DNA from: Enterococcus phage EFAP-1
Sequence record: FJ792813.1
DNA: 21,115 bases
Direction: 5' to 3' (one strand)
The translations under genes were made by a program, and so were the position numbers. The notes beneath the pieces are model-generated. The model saw only the letters and a list, made by a program, of their open reading frames with translations, ran no database searches and had not been told where the DNA came from. Shown here one piece after another: positions 2,258 to 21,035 of the stretch (positions are counted from its first letter, which is position 1; each line of letters begins with the position of its first letter).

Positions 2258-4327
2258 CTATACTGAAAATACACCTGTCAATACCCATTTAGCACCATTA
2301 CCTTGTGCATTTTCTGCCCGTCCTTTTATCTGTGTTTTACTAACATATACATATTTGAATATAGTATCATTTGCGCCATCACCAGTTGAAGCACCTTGTA
2401 GTCGCATTACAATACCTTTACCATTATTGTAAGCACCATGTGCTTTTGGAACTAGGTAGTACGTATAGTCCCAAGTACCTGGTGTTGATGTTGATGTGTT
2501 ATAGGGTTGCCACATAAACAACCAACCTATTGCAACTTCATCCATGGTAAGTGTTGGTGTAATTATATCATTTGCACCAACCCAAGATGCTCCACTGTAT
2601 AATCTGCGAGCTGTATTTGCGAATTGCATTACTAATTCAGCAGTTAAGAAACCACTGTTACCTTGTGCATCTAGTAATGACAACCCTGCTGGTGTAAGGC
2701 TTGCATATTGGTTTACTGAACTGTCAGTATTTAGTACACGTGCGTCAAACCCTTGTGAAAACAACCTTGTTGAACCTGTTCTGTTTGTTGTTAAGTTCTG
2801 GTATTCAATTTCCATTTCACCACTAGCTACGGTTGATATACCTTCAAGTTGTTGACCAGCTACTGTTGTTTTGAACGTATTCAAAAATTCAGAACCATTG
2901 ATTGTAGAACCGTTCATTGTTACAGCGTTTAATGTTTCAATGTTTAGCACAGATTGGTCAATTGTCTGTTCAACCCATTCTGTTTTTAAATCATCCCATA
3001 CCTTATAAGATGCTATCTTAGGATTTTCTTTTACTGCTCTTGTTTCAAGGTCACCTAATCTATTAACTGCATTAACTGGTACAGTACCATCAACAACCCA
3101 CCACATATCACCTTGTTTTGGATTAACTGGCGGTTCTTGTTGAACATATACTTTAGGAATAGATGCAACCTTATTATTAATCTGAGTGTTCAATTGGTCT
3201 GATAACTTTCTAAGCTCATCATTTATACCAGATTCAATTACTACAAAGTCTGATAACGTAGCTTCAACACTATCTGTGGTATAGTCATATTTTAGTTCTT
3301 GAACACGTGATTCAAGATATAACTCTTCCTTCTCGTCAACTAGTTTAATTTTATCACCAACAAGTAGATTGTATGGGATATTAGCAATATCAACTTCATA
3401 TGAAACCAGTGGTTTTCCATAATCTTTCAAGTGTTTTAGTGCGTAATCAACTAGTTTGTTTTTTGTAGTTGTTTCAAAGTCTAACTGCTGTAAGAAATAG
3501 TTATCCTCTGTATGAGTTCGTGACCATTGTTTGATGTTCTCTCTATCATATATAATACCAGTTGTTTTATCTAATCTAAAACGATTATTTGGGTCTACCC
3601 AGTTATAACCTTTCAGGTCAACAGGTTTATCTGCCCCATCAGGAGTACCACCAATAGGTTTTATAGCATTTACTAATTGGTAAATATCTTCTTTAGTCTT
3701 GATTGAATTAATATCCCTATTAACATATAGAGTGTGTACTTTATCTGTACCACGTCTCTTTTTAATGTCAATATATCTATTAACTAACTGGTTACCATTG
3801 AATTCAAATCTGAACTCTAATTCTGCATTATCAAATTGCGTTGCTACTGATTGAATACGTTCCAATGCGGTTGCTCCTGAATCCCACTCTAATTTTCTAG
3901 ATAACTTACTGATTTCATTAACACCAATTTTGAAACCACTGCTTCCAGCGAATTCTTCGATATAATACTTAATTGGAAACGCTTGTGTTGCCTTATACGA
4001 TTCAACATGTTGGTTCAGCAAGTCTAGTGATGCATCTTCCAATTCCATTGTTCTAACTTGGGTTAATGGGTCATGTTCAACACTTAAAATTGTCATCCAC
4101 TCATACTTACCATTCTTGTCAACGTAAAGTACGTAGTTACCTACTTTGAACGTTTCTTTAGCTAGTGCGCTAGTTTGTTGCGTAAATGTAACATCCAATA
4201 CCATACGTCTGCTTGCTGTTGATAACTGAACAGTATCCTCAGCAGTTACCACACTAAATAGTGTACCACCATTTGTTGATACAATATCTAATAATTTAAA
4301 TGTTCTATCTGTAATATAAAAATCCAT
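2258..4327 (-). CDS. tail-associated protein Tal / tail fibre (Prophage_tail-type N-terminal domain; C-terminal putative receptor-binding region)
   Basis: 689 aa. N-terminus MDFYITDRTFKLLDIV... is typical of the siphovirus Tal N-terminal (gp27-like) domain. Position immediately after Dit. C-terminal 200 aa are G/S/T/W/Y-rich, like receptor-binding heads. RBS GGAGG. Confidence 0.7.
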   Translation of the reverse strand: MDFYITDRTFKLLDIVSTNGGTLFSVVTAEDTVQLSTASRRMVLDVTFTQQTSALAKETFKVGNYVLYVDKNGKYEWMTILSVEHDPLTQVRTMELEDASLDLLNQHVESYKATQAFPIKYYIEEFAGSSGFKIGVNEISKLSRKLEWDSGATALERIQSVATQFDNAELEFRFEFNGNQLVNRYIDIKKRRGTDKVHTLYVNRDINSIKTKEDIYQLVNAIKPIGGTPDGADKPVDLKGYNWVDPNNRFRLDKTTGIIYDRENIKQWSRTHTEDNYFLQQLDFETTTKNKLVDYALKHLKDYGKPLVSYEVDIANIPYNLLVGDKIKLVDEKEELYLESRVQELKYDYTTDSVEATLSDFVVIESGINDELRKLSDQLNTQINNKVASIPKVYVQQEPPVNPKQGDMWWVVDGTVPVNAVNRLGDLETRAVKENPKIASYKVWDDLKTEWVEQTIDQSVLNIETLNAVTMNGSTINGSEFLNTFKTTVAGQQLEGISTVASGEMEIEYQNLTTNRTGSTRLFSQGFDARVLNTDSSVNQYASLTPAGLSLLDAQGNSGFLTAELVMQFANTARRLYSGASWVGANDIITPTLTMDEVAIGWLFMWQPYNTSTSTPGTWDYTYYLVPKAHGAYNNGKGIVMRLQGASTGDGANDTIFKYVYVSKTQIKGRAENAQGNGAKWVLTGVFSV

Positions 4328-10931: not shown

Positions 10932-11200
10932 TAGTCTAGTTCTCCTTTCGCTCTAGCCATTTCCGCTGGTGATAATACTGAACCAAAGAATGACATAGGG
11001 TCTTGCTTCTTCTCTTTTTTAGGGGCTTTCTGATTGTTAAATAAATCTAAAAGAAAGTAGTAATCAGCATTGTTTATCTCTGATAAACTCCAATTACCAC
11101 TTTCTAATAGTTGTCTATATAAGTCATCAAAGTTTTCTAACTGTTCTGCGAATGACGTATTTTCTAATTCTTTTAACTCATCAGCCCCTAGGCTTTTTTT
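10932..11200 (-). CDS. -1 frame extension of the tail assembly chaperone (gpGT-like fusion product)
   Basis: The -1 frame is open from the A7 run for 87 codons (SLGADELKELENTSFAEQLENFDDLYRQLLESGNWSLSEINNADYYFLLDLFNNQKAPKKEKKQDPMSFFGSVLSPAEMARAKGELD) and stops at TAA 10932-10934, overlapping the TMP ATG. Confidence 0.55.
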
Positions 11201-11499: not shown

Positions 11500-11518
11500 A
11501 ATTGATTCCTCCAATAAA

Positions 11519-11571
11519 TTTATTTTTCTTACTAAAGATATTATAGCATAAACACTGGTGGTTGTGGGTGT
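11519..11571 (-). promoter_or_regulatory. conserved late promoter-like element, copy E1 (upstream of chaperone/TMP block)
   Basis: Minus strand ACACCCACAA-ccaccagtgttta-TGCTATAAT-ATCTTTAGTAAGAAAAATAAA, then RBS GGAGGA. Confidence 0.55.
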
Positions 11572-11589
11572 TGGTGAAACTAGTTCAAA

Positions 11590-11625
11590 TAAAAAGAGTA
11601 CCTACACTTAAGTAAGTACCCCTTC
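11590..11625 (-). terminator. hairpin plus T-run after the major tail protein gene
   Basis: Minus strand GGGGTACTTAC ttaagt GTAGGTACTC followed by TTTTTATTT. Confidence 0.45.
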
Positions 11626-11629
11626 TATA

Positions 11630-11702
11630 TTATGATAATTCAATTGTCACAGATGTTTCATCTGTTGTTATTTCACCCACTAGCGGTGCTTTACTCACTG
11701 GG
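11630..11702 (-). CDS. +1-frame C-terminal extension of the major tail protein (PVSKAPLVGEITTDETSVTIELS)
   Basis: The +1 frame is open from CCA at 11699-11701 to TAA at 11630-11632. The peptide is almost identical to the +1-frame peptide after the MCP gene, and the nucleotide differences are mostly synonymous in this frame. Confidence 0.5.
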
Positions 11703-17328: not shown

Positions 17329-19053
17329 TTATACACCAAATCCAAATTTTCCTTCTTCAATCAGTTCTTTAAAGCTAATATACTCATAATCAAAGTACAT
17401 TGCTTCACTCATTGCATTAATTAAGGCATCTATAGGGTCAATTTTGTTACGATTCATAGCCTTTTCAATAGCTATATTGTCCGCAAACTCACGCATAATA
17501 GCATTATATACCGCTCTAGTTAGTAGTGGGTTATCTGTTTGAATCACTTCACCCTTGATAATTGCATCACGTAAGTACTTTGTAGGTGCATTTAAATACT
17601 GGATGCGCTGTGGTACTTCAATTAGTTTGTCTGGAAAGTCCTTGCTTAAGTTGATTACAGATGGCGTTGCTTGGTGTCCGTCATAGTAAATACCTTGTAG
17701 GTCTAAGTCATACTCTGTTATGAACTCTCTTATCCATTCGCACATATCTTCATGGTCTATCAAACCATCTGGTCGCTGACTGATGTTTACTAGTCCTAAG
17801 TTCTCATACTGTCTATACGGTATCTTATCTTTTATCTGTTTAGCTTCAATACCACCCACAGAAGCTATAAAAGCGTGACTGTCAAGAAGTAGCTTGCGTT
17901 CCTCTGCAATAGGTATCACCCAGCTAACTGCCGTCATATCGCCTGTACGTGCCAAATCAAGACCTATATAAACTGGTCTACCTTTTATATCATATGGTTT
18001 TGTTTGCTTAACAGCTTCCCAAGATTCTTTATCAATGAAACTGTCTTGTGATGATTGTACCCAGAAGTTCATCTCTTTAGTTAGCCAACCACTCATGTCA
18101 CCCTTAGCCTTATACTCTGCTAATGAGTTAACCTTATGTTCGTACATTGTTTCATGTAACTGTGCATTCTCAAATAATGGGTTGCTCTTAATCCAGTTAG
18201 CTTCATCATCTACTTCACTTAGGCTATCCATTTCCCAACACAAGGCAAGGTATGCATCAGCTTCCACTTCCTCATTAAGTAGCTTAGTTATAAATGGGTA
18301 TTCTATGCTGTGCATTGGTCCATTCAAGTTTTTGGTTGTTGTACTAATAATCAAAATTAAACCTTGTAATTGTTGTGACTGTGAACTTTCTAATACCTCA
18401 ATCATGGCTGTGCTTTTAGCTTCTCCATACTCATCAAGTACACCACATAGCACGTCTAGTCCGTCTAAGCTATCTACATCACTTGATAGTGGCTTAACCG
18501 TTGATTCATCTTCTAAGTGTTCAATGTCTTTCTTATTAACTTTGGTTACTTTCCTTGTTCCATCACTTACTGCACGCAATGCCTTTAGCTGTGATTTTAA
18601 CATGTTGAATACAATACCAGCTTGGTCTTTAGTGTTAGCCGCCGCTACAATCTGTCTTGAAGCGTTTGGATACTGACCTAATAAGAACTCATATAATGAG
18701 ATACCAGCAACCAGAATTGACTTACCGTTTTTACGTGCTAGGCTGATATATACTTTTCTGAATCTACGCATCTTGTTTTTCTTTTTGCGCCAACCATATA
18801 TCATAGCAATAATAAACTTCTGGAACTTAGCTAGTTTATTTGTCTTACGTGTCTTTGGGTCTGGTAGCATTTCAATAAATGCAACTGGTTCTAGTGCTTC
18901 TTTAGGGTCATAGTAGTATGGATAATCTGGGTCTAGTGACCGCTCTAAGTCCTTCTCATGACGTCTAATGGCTTGTTTAATCTTATTACCTATTGGTATT
19001 TGATTATACCTTACGTAATTGATGTAATCAGCTACAAAATCTATATTATTCAT
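17329..19053 (-). CDS. terL: terminase large subunit
   Basis: 574 aa. Walker A-like LARKNGKS. Terminase_1-type ATPase/nuclease architecture. RBS AAGGAGG 7 nt before the ATG. TGCTATAAT lies just upstream. Confidence 0.9.
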   Translation of the reverse strand: MNNIDFVADYINYVRYNQIPIGNKIKQAIRRHEKDLERSLDPDYPYYYDPKEALEPVAFIEMLPDPKTRKTNKLAKFQKFIIAMIYGWRKKKNKMRRFRKVYISLARKNGKSILVAGISLYEFLLGQYPNASRQIVAAANTKDQAGIVFNMLKSQLKALRAVSDGTRKVTKVNKKDIEHLEDESTVKPLSSDVDSLDGLDVLCGVLDEYGEAKSTAMIEVLESSQSQQLQGLILIISTTTKNLNGPMHSIEYPFITKLLNEEVEADAYLALCWEMDSLSEVDDEANWIKSNPLFENAQLHETMYEHKVNSLAEYKAKGDMSGWLTKEMNFWVQSSQDSFIDKESWEAVKQTKPYDIKGRPVYIGLDLARTGDMTAVSWVIPIAEERKLLLDSHAFIASVGGIEAKQIKDKIPYRQYENLGLVNISQRPDGLIDHEDMCEWIREFITEYDLDLQGIYYDGHQATPSVINLSKDFPDKLIEVPQRIQYLNAPTKYLRDAIIKGEVIQTDNPLLTRAVYNAIMREFADNIAIEKAMNRNKIDPIDALINAMSEAMYFDYEYISFKELIEEGKFGFGV

Positions 19054-19424
19054 ATGTATACCTCCTTGTTTCTATTATAGCACAAATAAAAAGACTTAGG
19101 TCATGAGTTTATCCAAAGGGGATAACAAACTTACCTAAGTCAATTGGTCGCACAGCAACCGTTATTAAATGATTAAGTGTTGTTATGTGGTTGGCGGACC
19201 GTCCACATACGGACTGCCTCACAACACTTAATAGAGTTTTGCTCACTTGGTTAAGGAGGTAAGAGCGTTTCCTTGTAAATAGACCCTCACATCTATTTAC
19301 TAACATGTTACTAACATGTCCGCAACTATTGCCGTAGTTGCTCCTGAATAATACTACCCAATATTATTCTAATCTACAAATCATCTGGAAGGCGTTTTCC
19401 GTAAATACATTATACCACAACTTA
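19054..19424 (-). other. 370-bp structured noncoding spacer between terS and terL
   Basis: No credible ORF. The only ORF (65 aa, 19109-19306) has no RBS and starts inside a repeat. GC-rich relative to the flanks. Tandem TTACTAACATG x2 (19298-19319), palindrome TAACATGTTA, stem-loop GCAACTA-ttgcc-TAGTTGC (19322-19341), inverted repeat AAGTGTTGT/ACAACACTT (19167-19215). Promoter-like TCAACA-N17-TGTGGTATAAT on the minus strand at about 19396-19430. Confidence 0.4.
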
Positions 19425-19898
19425 CTAACTTTGTTGACGTAACTTAATCAACTGTCCTAGTGGGTCATTGCTTTCTTTTGTTTTTTCAGCTGGTGCCACT
19501 ATTTTCAGTCTTGCGTTAATTGTCAAACCAAGGTCAGCAGTTGCGGACTTCAACTCTTTACTATATGAGTTCATGATGTCAACACGTGGATTCTTCTTAC
19601 CATCTGGTGTGATTTCTCCTTCTTCCATCAATCGCTCTGTTGCTTCACTATATAGGTAAGTGTAATTACAGTAACGAACCATTGTTTGTTGGTCCAATTC
19701 TGAAATAGGTAGGTCACCTATAAAGTGTGAGATACGTTCCCATTCAGGAAAAGCACCTTGCAATAATCCTTGTGGATAATAACTAAAGTCTAACTTCTCA
19801 TAGTTGTAAAGTGCTTCTTCCTCTTTCTTACGTTCCTCTTGTTGCTCTGTTGTGAGGTTGCCAACTTGGGCATTAATTAATTTTCTTGGTCTACCCAT
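19425..19898 (-). CDS. terS: terminase small subunit (P27 family)
   Basis: 157 aa. MGRPRKLI... plus the overall P27-family pattern. RBS AAGGAGGTG. Immediately upstream of terL, in a region that also carries an HNH gene. Confidence 0.8.
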   Translation of the reverse strand: MGRPRKLINAQVGNLTTEQQEERKKEEEALYNYEKLDFSYYPQGLLQGAFPEWERISHFIGDLPISELDQQTMVRYCNYTYLYSEATERLMEEGEITPDGKKNPRVDIMNSYSKELKSATADLGLTINARLKIVAPAEKTKESNDPLGQLIKLRQQS

Positions 19899-19912: not shown

Positions 19913-20065
19913 TTATACTACTTCAATAATTTCATAATGGCGATTGCGTCCACCAAGCTTAGTGCGTACGTCTTTAAAGTAGCCTGATTTTTTATTATAA
20001 AATTTGTCTGCTTCTGTTTGCGACTTAAACGCTCGTGTTTGTTGCGTGTGCAAATCTTTTACCAT
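19913..20065 (-). CDS. small basic protein (50 aa) immediately upstream of terS
   Basis: MVKDLHTQQTRAFKSQTEADKFYNKKSGYFKDVRTKLGGRNRHYEIIEVV. Not in the ORF track. No RBS within 15 nt of the ATG, but an in-frame ATT triplet run sits 8 nt after AGGGAGG (20084-20100). Stop is 10 nt before the terS RBS. Confidence 0.35.
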   Translation of the reverse strand: MVKDLHTQQTRAFKSQTEADKFYNKKSGYFKDVRTKLGGRNRHYEIIEVV

Positions 20066-20163
20066 AATAGGTTTTGGTGCTGGAATAATAATTACCTCCC
20101 TTACTATAATTTAAATTTAAGAAAAAACTCCCTAACAAAATTATAGCACAAAACGTGTTGTTT

Positions 20164-20291
20164 GAGAAACCAGTTTTGATGCGTGTTATCAGGGAAGTAT
20201 TTCGTAATAGTGAATATGTGTAACATTCTGTGTAACGCTTGATACAATTGAAAAGAAACCAGTTTTGAATCGTGTTTTTCAAGGGAAAAAG
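20164..20291. repeat. two imperfect direct repeats GAAACCAGTTTTGA(t/a)(g/t)CGTGTT.T(.)CA(A)GGGAA, about 89 bp apart
   Basis: Copies at 20164-20197 and 20253-20291. Confidence 0.6.
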
Positions 20292-20386
20292 CATGTTTTC
20301 AACTTTCGTTTTTAGAAATTCGTGTGAAAAGAAGTCATCACCGATTAGCTTGACCAAAAAATCGAGGGGGGGTCTAAAAAATTTAG

Positions 20387-20426
20387 GTACTCCCTCCCGT
20401 TTTATTTTGGTACTCCCTCCCGTTTT
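20387..20426. repeat. tandem direct repeat ggtactccctcccgtttt x2 (22-bp period)
   Basis: Exact 18-mer at 20387-20404 and 20409-20426. Confidence 0.7.
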
Positions 20427-20457: not shown

Positions 20458-20829
20458 TTACCCCTTGCGGTGGCGGAAGCTGGCAGAATGTTCTTCTTTA
20501 TTGTGACACTCTTGACATATACTTTCTAGGTTATCTATATCCAACCTATGTTCCCAACCCATTGTGGTCCGTACCTCTTGCCTATGATGCACTATGGTTG
20601 CTATGCTTGCATTACATACTTCACACATTGGATTCATTGATAGCTTTCTTGCTCTCACGTTTCGCCACTGTGTTGATGCATAGAAGTCCGCATACTTCTT
20701 GTTGTCTGGTGAATGTCTTACTTGCTTGTTGTATGTTCGTTGTGTATTACCTTTGTGTTCTTCACAGTATACTTCTGGTATGTCTACATACTCCCTGCAG
20801 TGTGCAACCTTACACCGTCGCTTAGGCAT
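20458..20829 (-). CDS. HNH endonuclease (terminase-associated)
   Basis: 123 aa from ATG 20827-20829. CxxC...HH...CxxC with CQECHNKEEH is an HNH zinc-finger motif. Start overlaps the stop of the upstream ORF (TAATG). Confidence 0.8.
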   Translation of the reverse strand: MPKRRCKVAHCREYVDIPEVYCEEHKGNTQRTYNKQVRHSPDNKKYADFYASTQWRNVRARKLSMNPMCEVCNASIATIVHHRQEVRTTMGWEHRLDIDNLESICQECHNKEEHSASFRHRKG

Positions 20830-21035
20830 TAGAAGCCCCACATATCTTTGTTGTTATTGGTGGTGCTTAAGATGTCATAAGATACTTTAGGTTTGCTTGT
20901 TGGTTCTGTTGTTGGTTGTTCTGTTGTGTCTGATGTGTTGGTAACCATTGCTTGCTCTAACTGTCTGATGTATGATACTAACTCTAACTTAGTATGAGAT
21001 AGTAGTTGCTTGTCTGTCATACCCTCCATGGTCAT
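20829..21035 (-). CDS. hypothetical 68-aa protein
   Basis: ATG 21033-21035 with RBS GAGGAGGG 8 nt upstream. Translationally coupled to the HNH gene. T/S/P-rich middle. No recognisable motif. Confidence 0.4.
   Translation of the reverse strand: MTMEGMTDKQLLSHTKLELVSYIRQLEQAMVTNTSDTTEQPTTEPTSKPKVSYDILSTTNNNKDMWGF

Follow-up and report, generated by a model that had tools for sequence, protein, structure and literature searches.

The terminase genes terS and terL of Enterococcus phage EFAP-1 are separated by a 371-bp gap that, with a probability of roughly 0.55, encodes a modular noncoding RNA as an accessory unit of transcription resembling a moron; judged by its sequence signals, this unit would share a terminator with terS and be followed directly by the promoter of terL. 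The gap lies in a DNA stretch of 21,115 nucleotides (sequence record FJ792813.1), here referred to as the window, which matches siphophages of Enterococcus faecalis in the genus Efquatrovirus, among them Max, phiSHEF2 and AUEF3, at about 98% identity. Members of this genus are among the most often isolated Enterococcus phage-therapy candidates, and the GenBank records leave the locus blank or fill it with a spurious hypothetical protein. A literature search retrieved neither a published Efquatrovirus transcriptome nor a description of the terS–terL region. The cassette itself appears to be undescribed and unannotated; its general kind, a structured-RNA or moron-like unit, is already known.

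Our comparison set consisted of 44 terS–terL spacers from IMG/VR and GenBank (L-numbers denote related loci), which belong to two diverged lineages, an E. faecalis group and an E. faecium (IME-EFm1-like) group, and range in length from 92 to 1927 bp. An earlier note on this DNA, made from the sequence alone, had regarded adjacent terS and terL genes as the norm and had proposed a comparison with related phages, a covariance-model search against Rfam and folding with an alignment. Adjacency is not the norm in this group: all 44 examined relatives with a terS identity of at least 62% have a spacer, and the two genes overlap only in three more distant ones (L028-L030). The note was right that no credible open reading frame (ORF) lies between the genes, the sole ORF of the gap being noncoding by its substitution pattern. 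Its description of the spacer as GC-rich was mistaken, since the G+C content is 37.5% versus 36.7% for the window and only the segment 19181-19240 reaches 46.7%.

The gap is framed by signals that recur at fixed places. The earlier note had pointed to a promoter-like TCAACA-N17-TATAAT with an upstream TG, and the consensus match was confirmed on the − strand at 19437-19409. This putative promoter, P1, has 10 of 12 consensus matches, a 17-nt spacing and the upstream TG in a consensus scan; its extended −10 TGGTATAAT lies 8 nt past the terS stop and the predicted transcription start is near 19402. Of the 44 spacers, 42 contain an extended −10, which lies at spacer position 8 in the E. faecalis group and at position 23 in the E. 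faecium group; the two without P1 are those of Sigurd and Ec-ZZ2. There are only seven perfect TGnTATAAT sites on the − strand of the 21-kb window and several of the others are located in intergenic gaps, so that this is apparently the ordinary promoter type of the phage. At the other end, the TGCTATAAT and the ribosome-binding site (RBS) AAGGAGG that the note had assigned to terL were also confirmed ahead of its ATG at 19053, and this second candidate promoter, P2, is present 28-41 nt before the terL ATG in 42 of the 44 spacers.

Between the two lies T, an intrinsic-terminator-like hairpin with a ΔG of −17.9 kcal/mol and a U-tract immediately after the stem, as in a terminator; the −10 of P2 begins 10 nt past this U-tract in the window. 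About 40 of the 44 spacers contain a hairpin and T-run just upstream of P2, and for Sigurd the GenBank record itself labels the homologue of T a terminator. The order of promoter, hairpin with T-run and P2 is kept although the sequence between them cannot be aligned across the two groups. A third consensus promoter precedes a 50-aa ORF and terS, and terS therefore appears to belong to a separate short operon, terminated by T. The features of the region are listed in Table 1.

Table 1. Features of the terS–terL region in coordinates of the window; hairpin arms and loops are separated by hyphens.
Feature	Position	Strand	Details
HNH endonuclease gene	20458-20841	−	
Third consensus promoter (predicted)	−10 at 20148-20140 (feature 19913-20168)	−	TTCTCA-17-TATAAT with upstream TG; ahead of the 50-aa ORF, then terS
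50-aa ORF	19913-20065	−	upstream of terS
terS	19425-19898	−	P27-type
terS–terL gap	19054-19424		371 bp, terS stop to terL ATG
P1, sigma-A-type promoter (predicted)	19409..19437	−	−35-like TCAACA 19437-19432 in the last terS codons; extended −10 TGGTATAAT 19417-19409
H0, small 5'-proximal hairpin	19387..19400	−	GGAA/TTCC; minimum free energy (MFE) fold
Ha, hairpin	19346..19369	−	GAATAATA-..-TATTATTC
Hb, hairpin	19322..19341	−	GCAACTA-cggcaa-TAGTTGC; arms 19322-19328 and 19335-19341; the 7-bp hairpin of the earlier note
Linker and hairpin Hc	19297..19321	−	linker GACATGTTAG; holds the tandem repeat and the palindrome
Tandem TTACTAACATG x2	19297-19318		
Palindrome TAACATGTTA	19301-19310		
Hd, hairpin	19275..19300	−	TAAATAGAT-gtgagg-GTCTATTTA; MFE fold
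65-aa ORF	19109-19306	−	only ORF of the gap; noncoding
M3, hairpin	19241..19274	−	AAGGA-aaCGCTCTTAcc-TCCTT, then AACCAAGTGAGC
M4, long hairpin	19172..19232	−	outer stem ATTAAGTGTTGT/ACAACACTTAAT; inner stem TATGTGG/CCACATA; holds the GC-rich block
GC-rich block GGCGGACCGTCCACATACGGACTGCC	19193-19218		
Inverted repeat AAGTGTTGT/ACAACACTT	19175-19183 and 19221-19229		
M5, small hairpin	19146..19160	−	GGTTGC-tgt-GCGACC; invariant core, retained even in the 92-bp Sigurd spacer
T, intrinsic-terminator-like hairpin	19084..19141	−	GACTTAGGT...ACCTAAGTC, then TTTTTATTT
P2 (predicted)	19054..19082	−	extended −10 TGCTATAAT 19082-19074; RBS AAGGAGG 19067-19061; terL ATG 19053
terL	17329-19053	−	structural genes after it

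All of the sequence motifs listed in the earlier note could be read directly at their positions, and its description of the spacer as highly structured was confirmed. The MFE of the 371-bp gap is −108.8 kcal/mol (z = −5.2 for the sense and z = −6.2 for the antisense strand) and none of 100 shuffled sequences folded as well. Per nucleotide, the gap also folds with the lowest energy of the ten stretches of the window, intergenic and coding, that were compared. When the stems were compared across aligned relatives, they were seen to stay paired by compensatory changes, and the pairing appears to be selected on the sense-strand RNA. The signal is consistent in all the hairpins examined but one, H0, in which 88% of cells are paired and compensatory changes are lacking, so that it is weakly supported. 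Ha and Hb are paired in 95% and 98% of cells and together show six double-sided pair changes, two in Ha (AU to UA and AU to GC, in six sequences) and four in Hb. The stem of M3 is paired in 14 of 15 variants and covaries from AAGGA/TCCTT to AAGGC/GCCTT in 4 of the 15, while its loop GCTCTTA, the CGCTCTTA octamer in the loop and the downstream GTGAGC are all invariant.

M4 is a long hairpin with an 11-nt internal loop on the 5' side and a 12-nt loop ACGGTCCGCCAA. Its outer stem is paired in 100% and its inner stem in 98% of cells, with six double-sided changes such as TATGTGG/CCACATA to TATACAG/CTGTATA. Five U·G or G·U pairs are compatible with the sense strand alone, versus one A·C. As a control, the 3' partners were slid by 1-3 columns, whereupon pairing fell to 29-50% in M4 and to 18-52% across M4, Ha and Hb. 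An alternative inner pairing of the GC-rich block of M4 (GGC..CCG/CGG..GCC) was paired in only 79% of cells, and TATGTGG/CCACATA was therefore preferred as the inner stem. M5 was compared in 25 spacers, 23 of which have a U·G wobble and two a U-A pair at the same place; the opposite strand would have a C·A mismatch in the former. Complementarity between loops (M3 loop with the M4 internal loop, Ha loop with the M4 loop) was inspected by eye, and no consistent covariation was seen.

Within this fixed frame the interior of the spacer is a mosaic. The comparison with related phages showed that a given module may be retained, lost, exchanged for another or duplicated, the breakpoints lying at conserved linkers such as GACATGTTAG and ACCAAKTGA. 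The linker/Hc region is both a conserved module junction and a recombination breakpoint: GACATGTTA is invariant across 15 variants and the mosaic breakpoints cluster at spacer positions 114-129. Phage vB-EfaP-1017 (L039) has one copy only of the tandem 11-mer, which in the window is a duplication at the conserved linker. Hd is optional: no more than about 10 of 34 related spacers contain it, and elsewhere it is replaced by other modules. M3 is retained in the minimal spacer of L007, and the shortest spacer, the 92 bp of Sigurd, consists of M5, T and P2 only. Five loci, L035, L003, L044, L008 and L034 (Ef5.1, phiSHEF2, Ec-ZZ2 and others), carry an extra tandem unit between the first terminator and P2, composed of a promoter sequence, TGTTATAAT or TTATGTTATAAT, about 35 nt and a second copy of the terminator hairpin, which would give a second, very short RNA. 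In one contig of the E. faecium group (L024), the slot contains a gene for a Dam-type, D12-class N6-adenine DNA methyltransferase (3011-4030; PF02086, E = 3.5e-12), located at spacer positions 47-1066 with the promoters on one side and, on the other, the D element described below in two copies. In EfaCPT1 (L001), M4, M5 and the first arm of the terminator were deleted at spacer positions of about 195-205 via the microhomology TAAGT. The GenBank/IMG record of this phage also ends inside the spacer, which is where the record was opened and not a physical end.

One alternative is that no separate RNA has a function and that the spacer is a 3'-untranslated region and insulator, where the hairpins would shield the terS mRNA from 3' exonucleases, T and P2 would uncouple terS from terL and the modules would be junk from a recombination junction between terS and terL alleles. 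We consider this unlikely. The invariant core is indeed limited to M5, T and P2, as in Sigurd, deletions by microhomology occur (EfaCPT1) and other intergenic gaps of the phage are structured too. The locus also lies at a mosaic boundary: in L042-L046, L053, L054, L058, L061 and L063, compared with L002-L007, terS is 62-100% and terL 80-100% identical to the window while the spacer modules are shared, and since terS diverges far more than the adjoining terL, the spacer is a recombination boundary between alleles of the packaging genes. Mere insulation would not, however, readily explain why 42 of 44 spacers from two lineages keep a near-consensus promoter in the same place, nor why internal hairpins that lack U-tracts stay paired by compensation and loops and linkers are invariant, nor the joint transfer of a cassette and its own promoter to another phage.

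This transfer is the strongest argument for regarding the unit as an autonomous RNA gene and not as a leader of terL or a packaging signal. Enterococcus cecorum phage A40, whose genome is laid out differently, contains M3–M4 at 91% identity, behind their own TATGATATAAT and ending in a homologous terminator. The A40 cassette is located in the leftward early-gene arm and is followed by two terminators, and the terL of A40 overlaps the gene upstream of it. All 104 matching GenBank phage records are Enterococcus phages, and all matches to M3 in IMG/VR and metagenomes lie between terS and terL of related phages. Exact-pattern searches for host mimicry or chromosomal counterparts, made with M3 and the D element, gave no matches in 185,579 bacterial and archaeal species genomes.

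Of the two regulatory roles suggested in the earlier note, that of a small RNA and that of a leader acting on terL, the first is the best-supported reading, given the conserved promoter and terminator, the covarying hairpins, the G·U pairs confined to the sense strand and the portability of the cassette; the second is weakened. As a cis-acting leader of the late operon, the RNA from P1 would modify the polymerase or mask T and so permit read-through into terL and about 18 kb of structural genes, in the manner of lambda nut/boxA, HK022 put, Bacillus EAR or an attenuator. The position just ahead of the first gene of a long structural operon, with a terminator in between, suits such a role, as does the MFE fold, which pairs CTTACCTCCTT with the RBS of terL, and the octamer in the M3 loop is one that we take to be identical to the lambda boxA core; the boxA of Firmicutes differs from the E. 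coli/lambda form. We nevertheless find a leader improbable, because the A40 modules are far from terL and precede two terminators, a strong putative terL promoter comes after T in 42 of the 44 genomes, P1 is missing from Sigurd and Ec-ZZ2, the modules differ too much between spacers to form one fixed polymerase-binding fold and no Rfam antiterminator family matched. The pattern of variation also contradicts an anti-Shine-Dalgarno role for the CCTCC of this fold. Its variants CCGCC, ACTCC and CATCC are matched by changes in the opposite arm of the stem and not by changes in the RBS of terL and, since the stem partners of M3 covary, CCTCC seems to be constrained by its own stem.

A role of the DNA itself, as a packaging, nicking or terminase-binding site, as mobile palindromic repeats or as the scar of an intron or homing endonuclease, has very little to recommend it. 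The spacer does adjoin the terminase genes and is rich in inverted repeats, and the HNH genes just upstream of terS vary between relatives (CCS4, TexasRanger, Vaquero). The cohesive end is elsewhere, however. In IME-EF4, a 9-nt 3' cohesive end, TCATCACCG, has been mapped experimentally (PMC4445525). The window contains a single identical copy, at 20335-20343 in the interval from the HNH gene to terS, and this cos site is about 440 bp upstream of terS, which leaves the alternative packaging or nicking site proposed in the earlier note unsupported. The predicted order of the locus is the classic HNH–cos–terS–terL arrangement. Furthermore, the G·U wobbles suit one strand only, the cassette is also found away from terminase genes, and its modules are absent from the 185,579 species genomes. 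The proposed remnant of a mobile intron or homing endonuclease finds no more support, since no intron model matched and the spacer contains no endonuclease ORF.

The covariance-model search assigned the spacer to no known family. No matches to Rfam 15, including its introns, packaging RNA (pRNA), riboswitches, ribozymes, EAR and small RNAs, were obtained at gathering thresholds in the whole window or in 20 related loci, and none at E ≤ 10 in the segment 18900-19600. Neither tRNA nor tmRNA genes were found by ARAGORN in the window or in the 20 related loci.

That the gap encodes a small protein is hardly credible. TexasRanger and some further GenBank records list the 65-aa ORF as a hypothetical protein, but it has no Shine-Dalgarno sequence and no Pfam match, its substitutions are spread evenly over the codon positions (29/28/26), it is broken by stops or a frameshift (1-nt indel) in most relatives, and it runs through covarying stems into the terminator. 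An 11-codon ORF inside M4, read by eye, was likewise discarded since its ATG is lost in EFRM31.

Evidence that the slot is used for RNA also comes from the sister lineage. The spacers of the E. faecium phages contain, in the same position between terS and terL, an element of about 110 nt that we call D (L010:1680-1825 and homologues in L009-L027, with IME-EFm1 as L018; duplicated in one contig). D consists of five helices, of which two are pseudoknotted, one between a hairpin loop and the 3' tail and the other a 6-bp loop–loop helix that covaries from CCCTAC/GTAGGG to CCCTCT/AGAGGG. Overall, 94.5% of its cells are paired and 11 double-sided pair changes were recorded; no Rfam family matched the D element. 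Since D covaries as well, the slot seems to encode selected RNA structures in both lineages.

Several observations weigh against the interpretation as an RNA gene. Other intergenic gaps of the phage are also structured, with z values of −3 to −5. The relatives used in the pairing analysis are closely similar, with a column identity of 85-93%, and the compensatory changes therefore amount to few independent events; the shuffle control makes no correction for this relatedness. P1 is missing from Sigurd and Ec-ZZ2 and some spacers are nearly free of modules, which makes the RNA dispensable and perhaps weakly selected. The T of the window encloses an atypically large 27-nt interior with an inner stem, where the short forms in Sigurd and L007 have a 6-nt loop within the compact range of 3-8 nt, and the consensus terminator scan made no call. 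A duplex search against 23 phage translation-start regions gave no signal, the best value being −34.0 kcal/mol versus a shuffled mean of −34.5, and no binding partner, target or conserved loop motif that points to a function was found. Finally, P1, P2 and T were assigned by consensus match, and it is from these matches that we infer transcription.

If the gap is an RNA gene, the host sigma-A RNA polymerase would start at the extended −10 of P1 and produce a − strand RNA of about 315 nt, extending roughly from 19402 to 19086, which would fold co-transcriptionally into the independent hairpins H0, Ha, Hb, Hc, Hd, M3, M4 and M5. Transcription would stop at the hairpin and U-tract of T, where the terS mRNA from the promoter at 20148 would likewise end, and P2 would drive a separate transcript of terL and the structural genes. 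The RNA would be the accessory cargo of a moron-like expression slot, which in relatives may be empty of modules or hold several of them, units in duplicate or a gene for a methyltransferase. It would act in trans, most plausibly by binding a host or phage protein, as a decoy, a counter-defence RNA or an RNA recognised by host immunity. We favour protein binding because the cassette is portable, dispensable and shuffled among near-identical phages, and because its slot is shared with an anti-restriction-type gene.

Among known systems, the phage moron as defined by Hendrix and colleagues, a promoter–cargo–terminator unit between two genes that are adjacent in related phages, is similar in that P1 and T bracket a variable cargo, terS and terL overlap in L028-L030, one relative holds a methyltransferase gene and the cassette is found at another locus in A40. 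It differs in that the cargo of the window is a putative modular noncoding RNA and not a protein gene. Small RNAs of the DapZ/MicL type in enterobacteria are made from the 3'-untranslated region (3'-UTR) with an internal promoter and the terminator of the mRNA, depend on Hfq and have a conserved seed. The −35 of P1 inside the end of terS and the predicted sharing of T with the terS mRNA resemble this arrangement, whereas no seed or target was found for the window RNA in the search of phage translation-start regions and enterococci are not known to use Hfq.

Lambda 6S RNA (pR'–tR'), lambda nut/boxA, HK022 put and Bacillus EAR are short late-leader or cis-acting antiterminator RNAs. The window has in common with them a promoter, a short structured RNA and a terminator ahead of structural genes, as well as the octamer in the M3 loop; it differs in the terL promoter placed after the terminator, in modules that are variable and dispensable, in the presence of the cassette outside the late region and in the lack of an Rfam match. 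The pRNA of phi29 is likewise a structured phage RNA beside packaging functions, and the D element has complementary loops as pRNA does. However, no Rfam pRNA match was obtained, the phages studied here use a terS/terL/HNH cos system, and the window RNA cannot be an essential part of the motor since it is absent from some viable relatives.

The closest analogue is the cabRNA of staphylococcal phages, in which discrete structured RNAs of <50 to about 400 nt derive from the terS/terL region (Banh et al. 2023, Nature; PMC10686824). They are bound and sensed by a CBASS cyclase, individual hairpins carry the activity, and they have no known phage function; their sequences are not conserved between phages, and they are embedded in the terS/terL coding sequence with ends that depend on the TerS protein (PMC10686824). 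The location of the putative window RNA, at terS–terL of a Firmicute siphophage, and its predicted richness in hairpins would fit an RNA of this type. It differs in being placed in a dedicated noncoding spacer with its own putative promoter and terminator, and there is no sequence similarity to rely on. By this analogy, the slot could be a locus for exchangeable structured RNAs that meet host immunity, a promoter-driven counterpart of cabRNA supplying either decoys that dampen RNA-sensing defences or the very molecules that such defences detect, which we offer as a tentative and rather doubtful proposal. D, with its two pseudoknots, would then have the complexity of an aptamer or ribozyme, and M3–M4 would be its counterpart in the E. 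faecalis phages. The shuffling of modules fits the pattern of host-defence pressure, and the locus may for this reason influence host range.

If the RNA is made, phage biology would gain a family of modular structured RNAs not described before, and transcription of terS would be separate from that of terL in these phages. The RNA would also provide a genetically clean system, with its own promoter and terminator, a location outside coding sequence and natural deletion variants, for the role of terS–terL RNAs, a question left by cabRNA. A demonstrated link to immune sensing or counter-defence would sharply raise the interest of the locus.

A few minor observations were made in the relatives and elsewhere in the window. 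A strongly conserved module, GTGGTTCACCACACTCCACATTAAAAAGGGTT, is located just upstream of D (L010:1631-1669 and homologues, with two tandem copies in L014). It matched the PreQ1-I riboswitch aptamer below threshold (13 bits, E = 6), perhaps by chance, and resembles it in its stem, in having a UUC and a tail rich in A, and in a pseudoknot that ACC and GGT may form. The other sub-threshold Rfam match in a relative was to the terminator-like NsiR1. On the HNH side of cos, about 45-90 bp from the cleavage site, a perfect 15-bp direct repeat ACGGGAGGGAGTACC (− strand) occurs at 20386-20400 and 20409-20423, with starts 23 bp apart, and is a candidate terminase-binding (cosB/cosQ-like) element. Two other gaps in the window fold better than shuffled sequences. 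The one at 10932-11187 (z −3.5), between a likely tail-chaperone ORF and the tape-measure gene, may be a frameshift extension rather than noncoding, and the one at 11515-11690 (z −5.1) contains a TGCTATAAT at 11548-11540.

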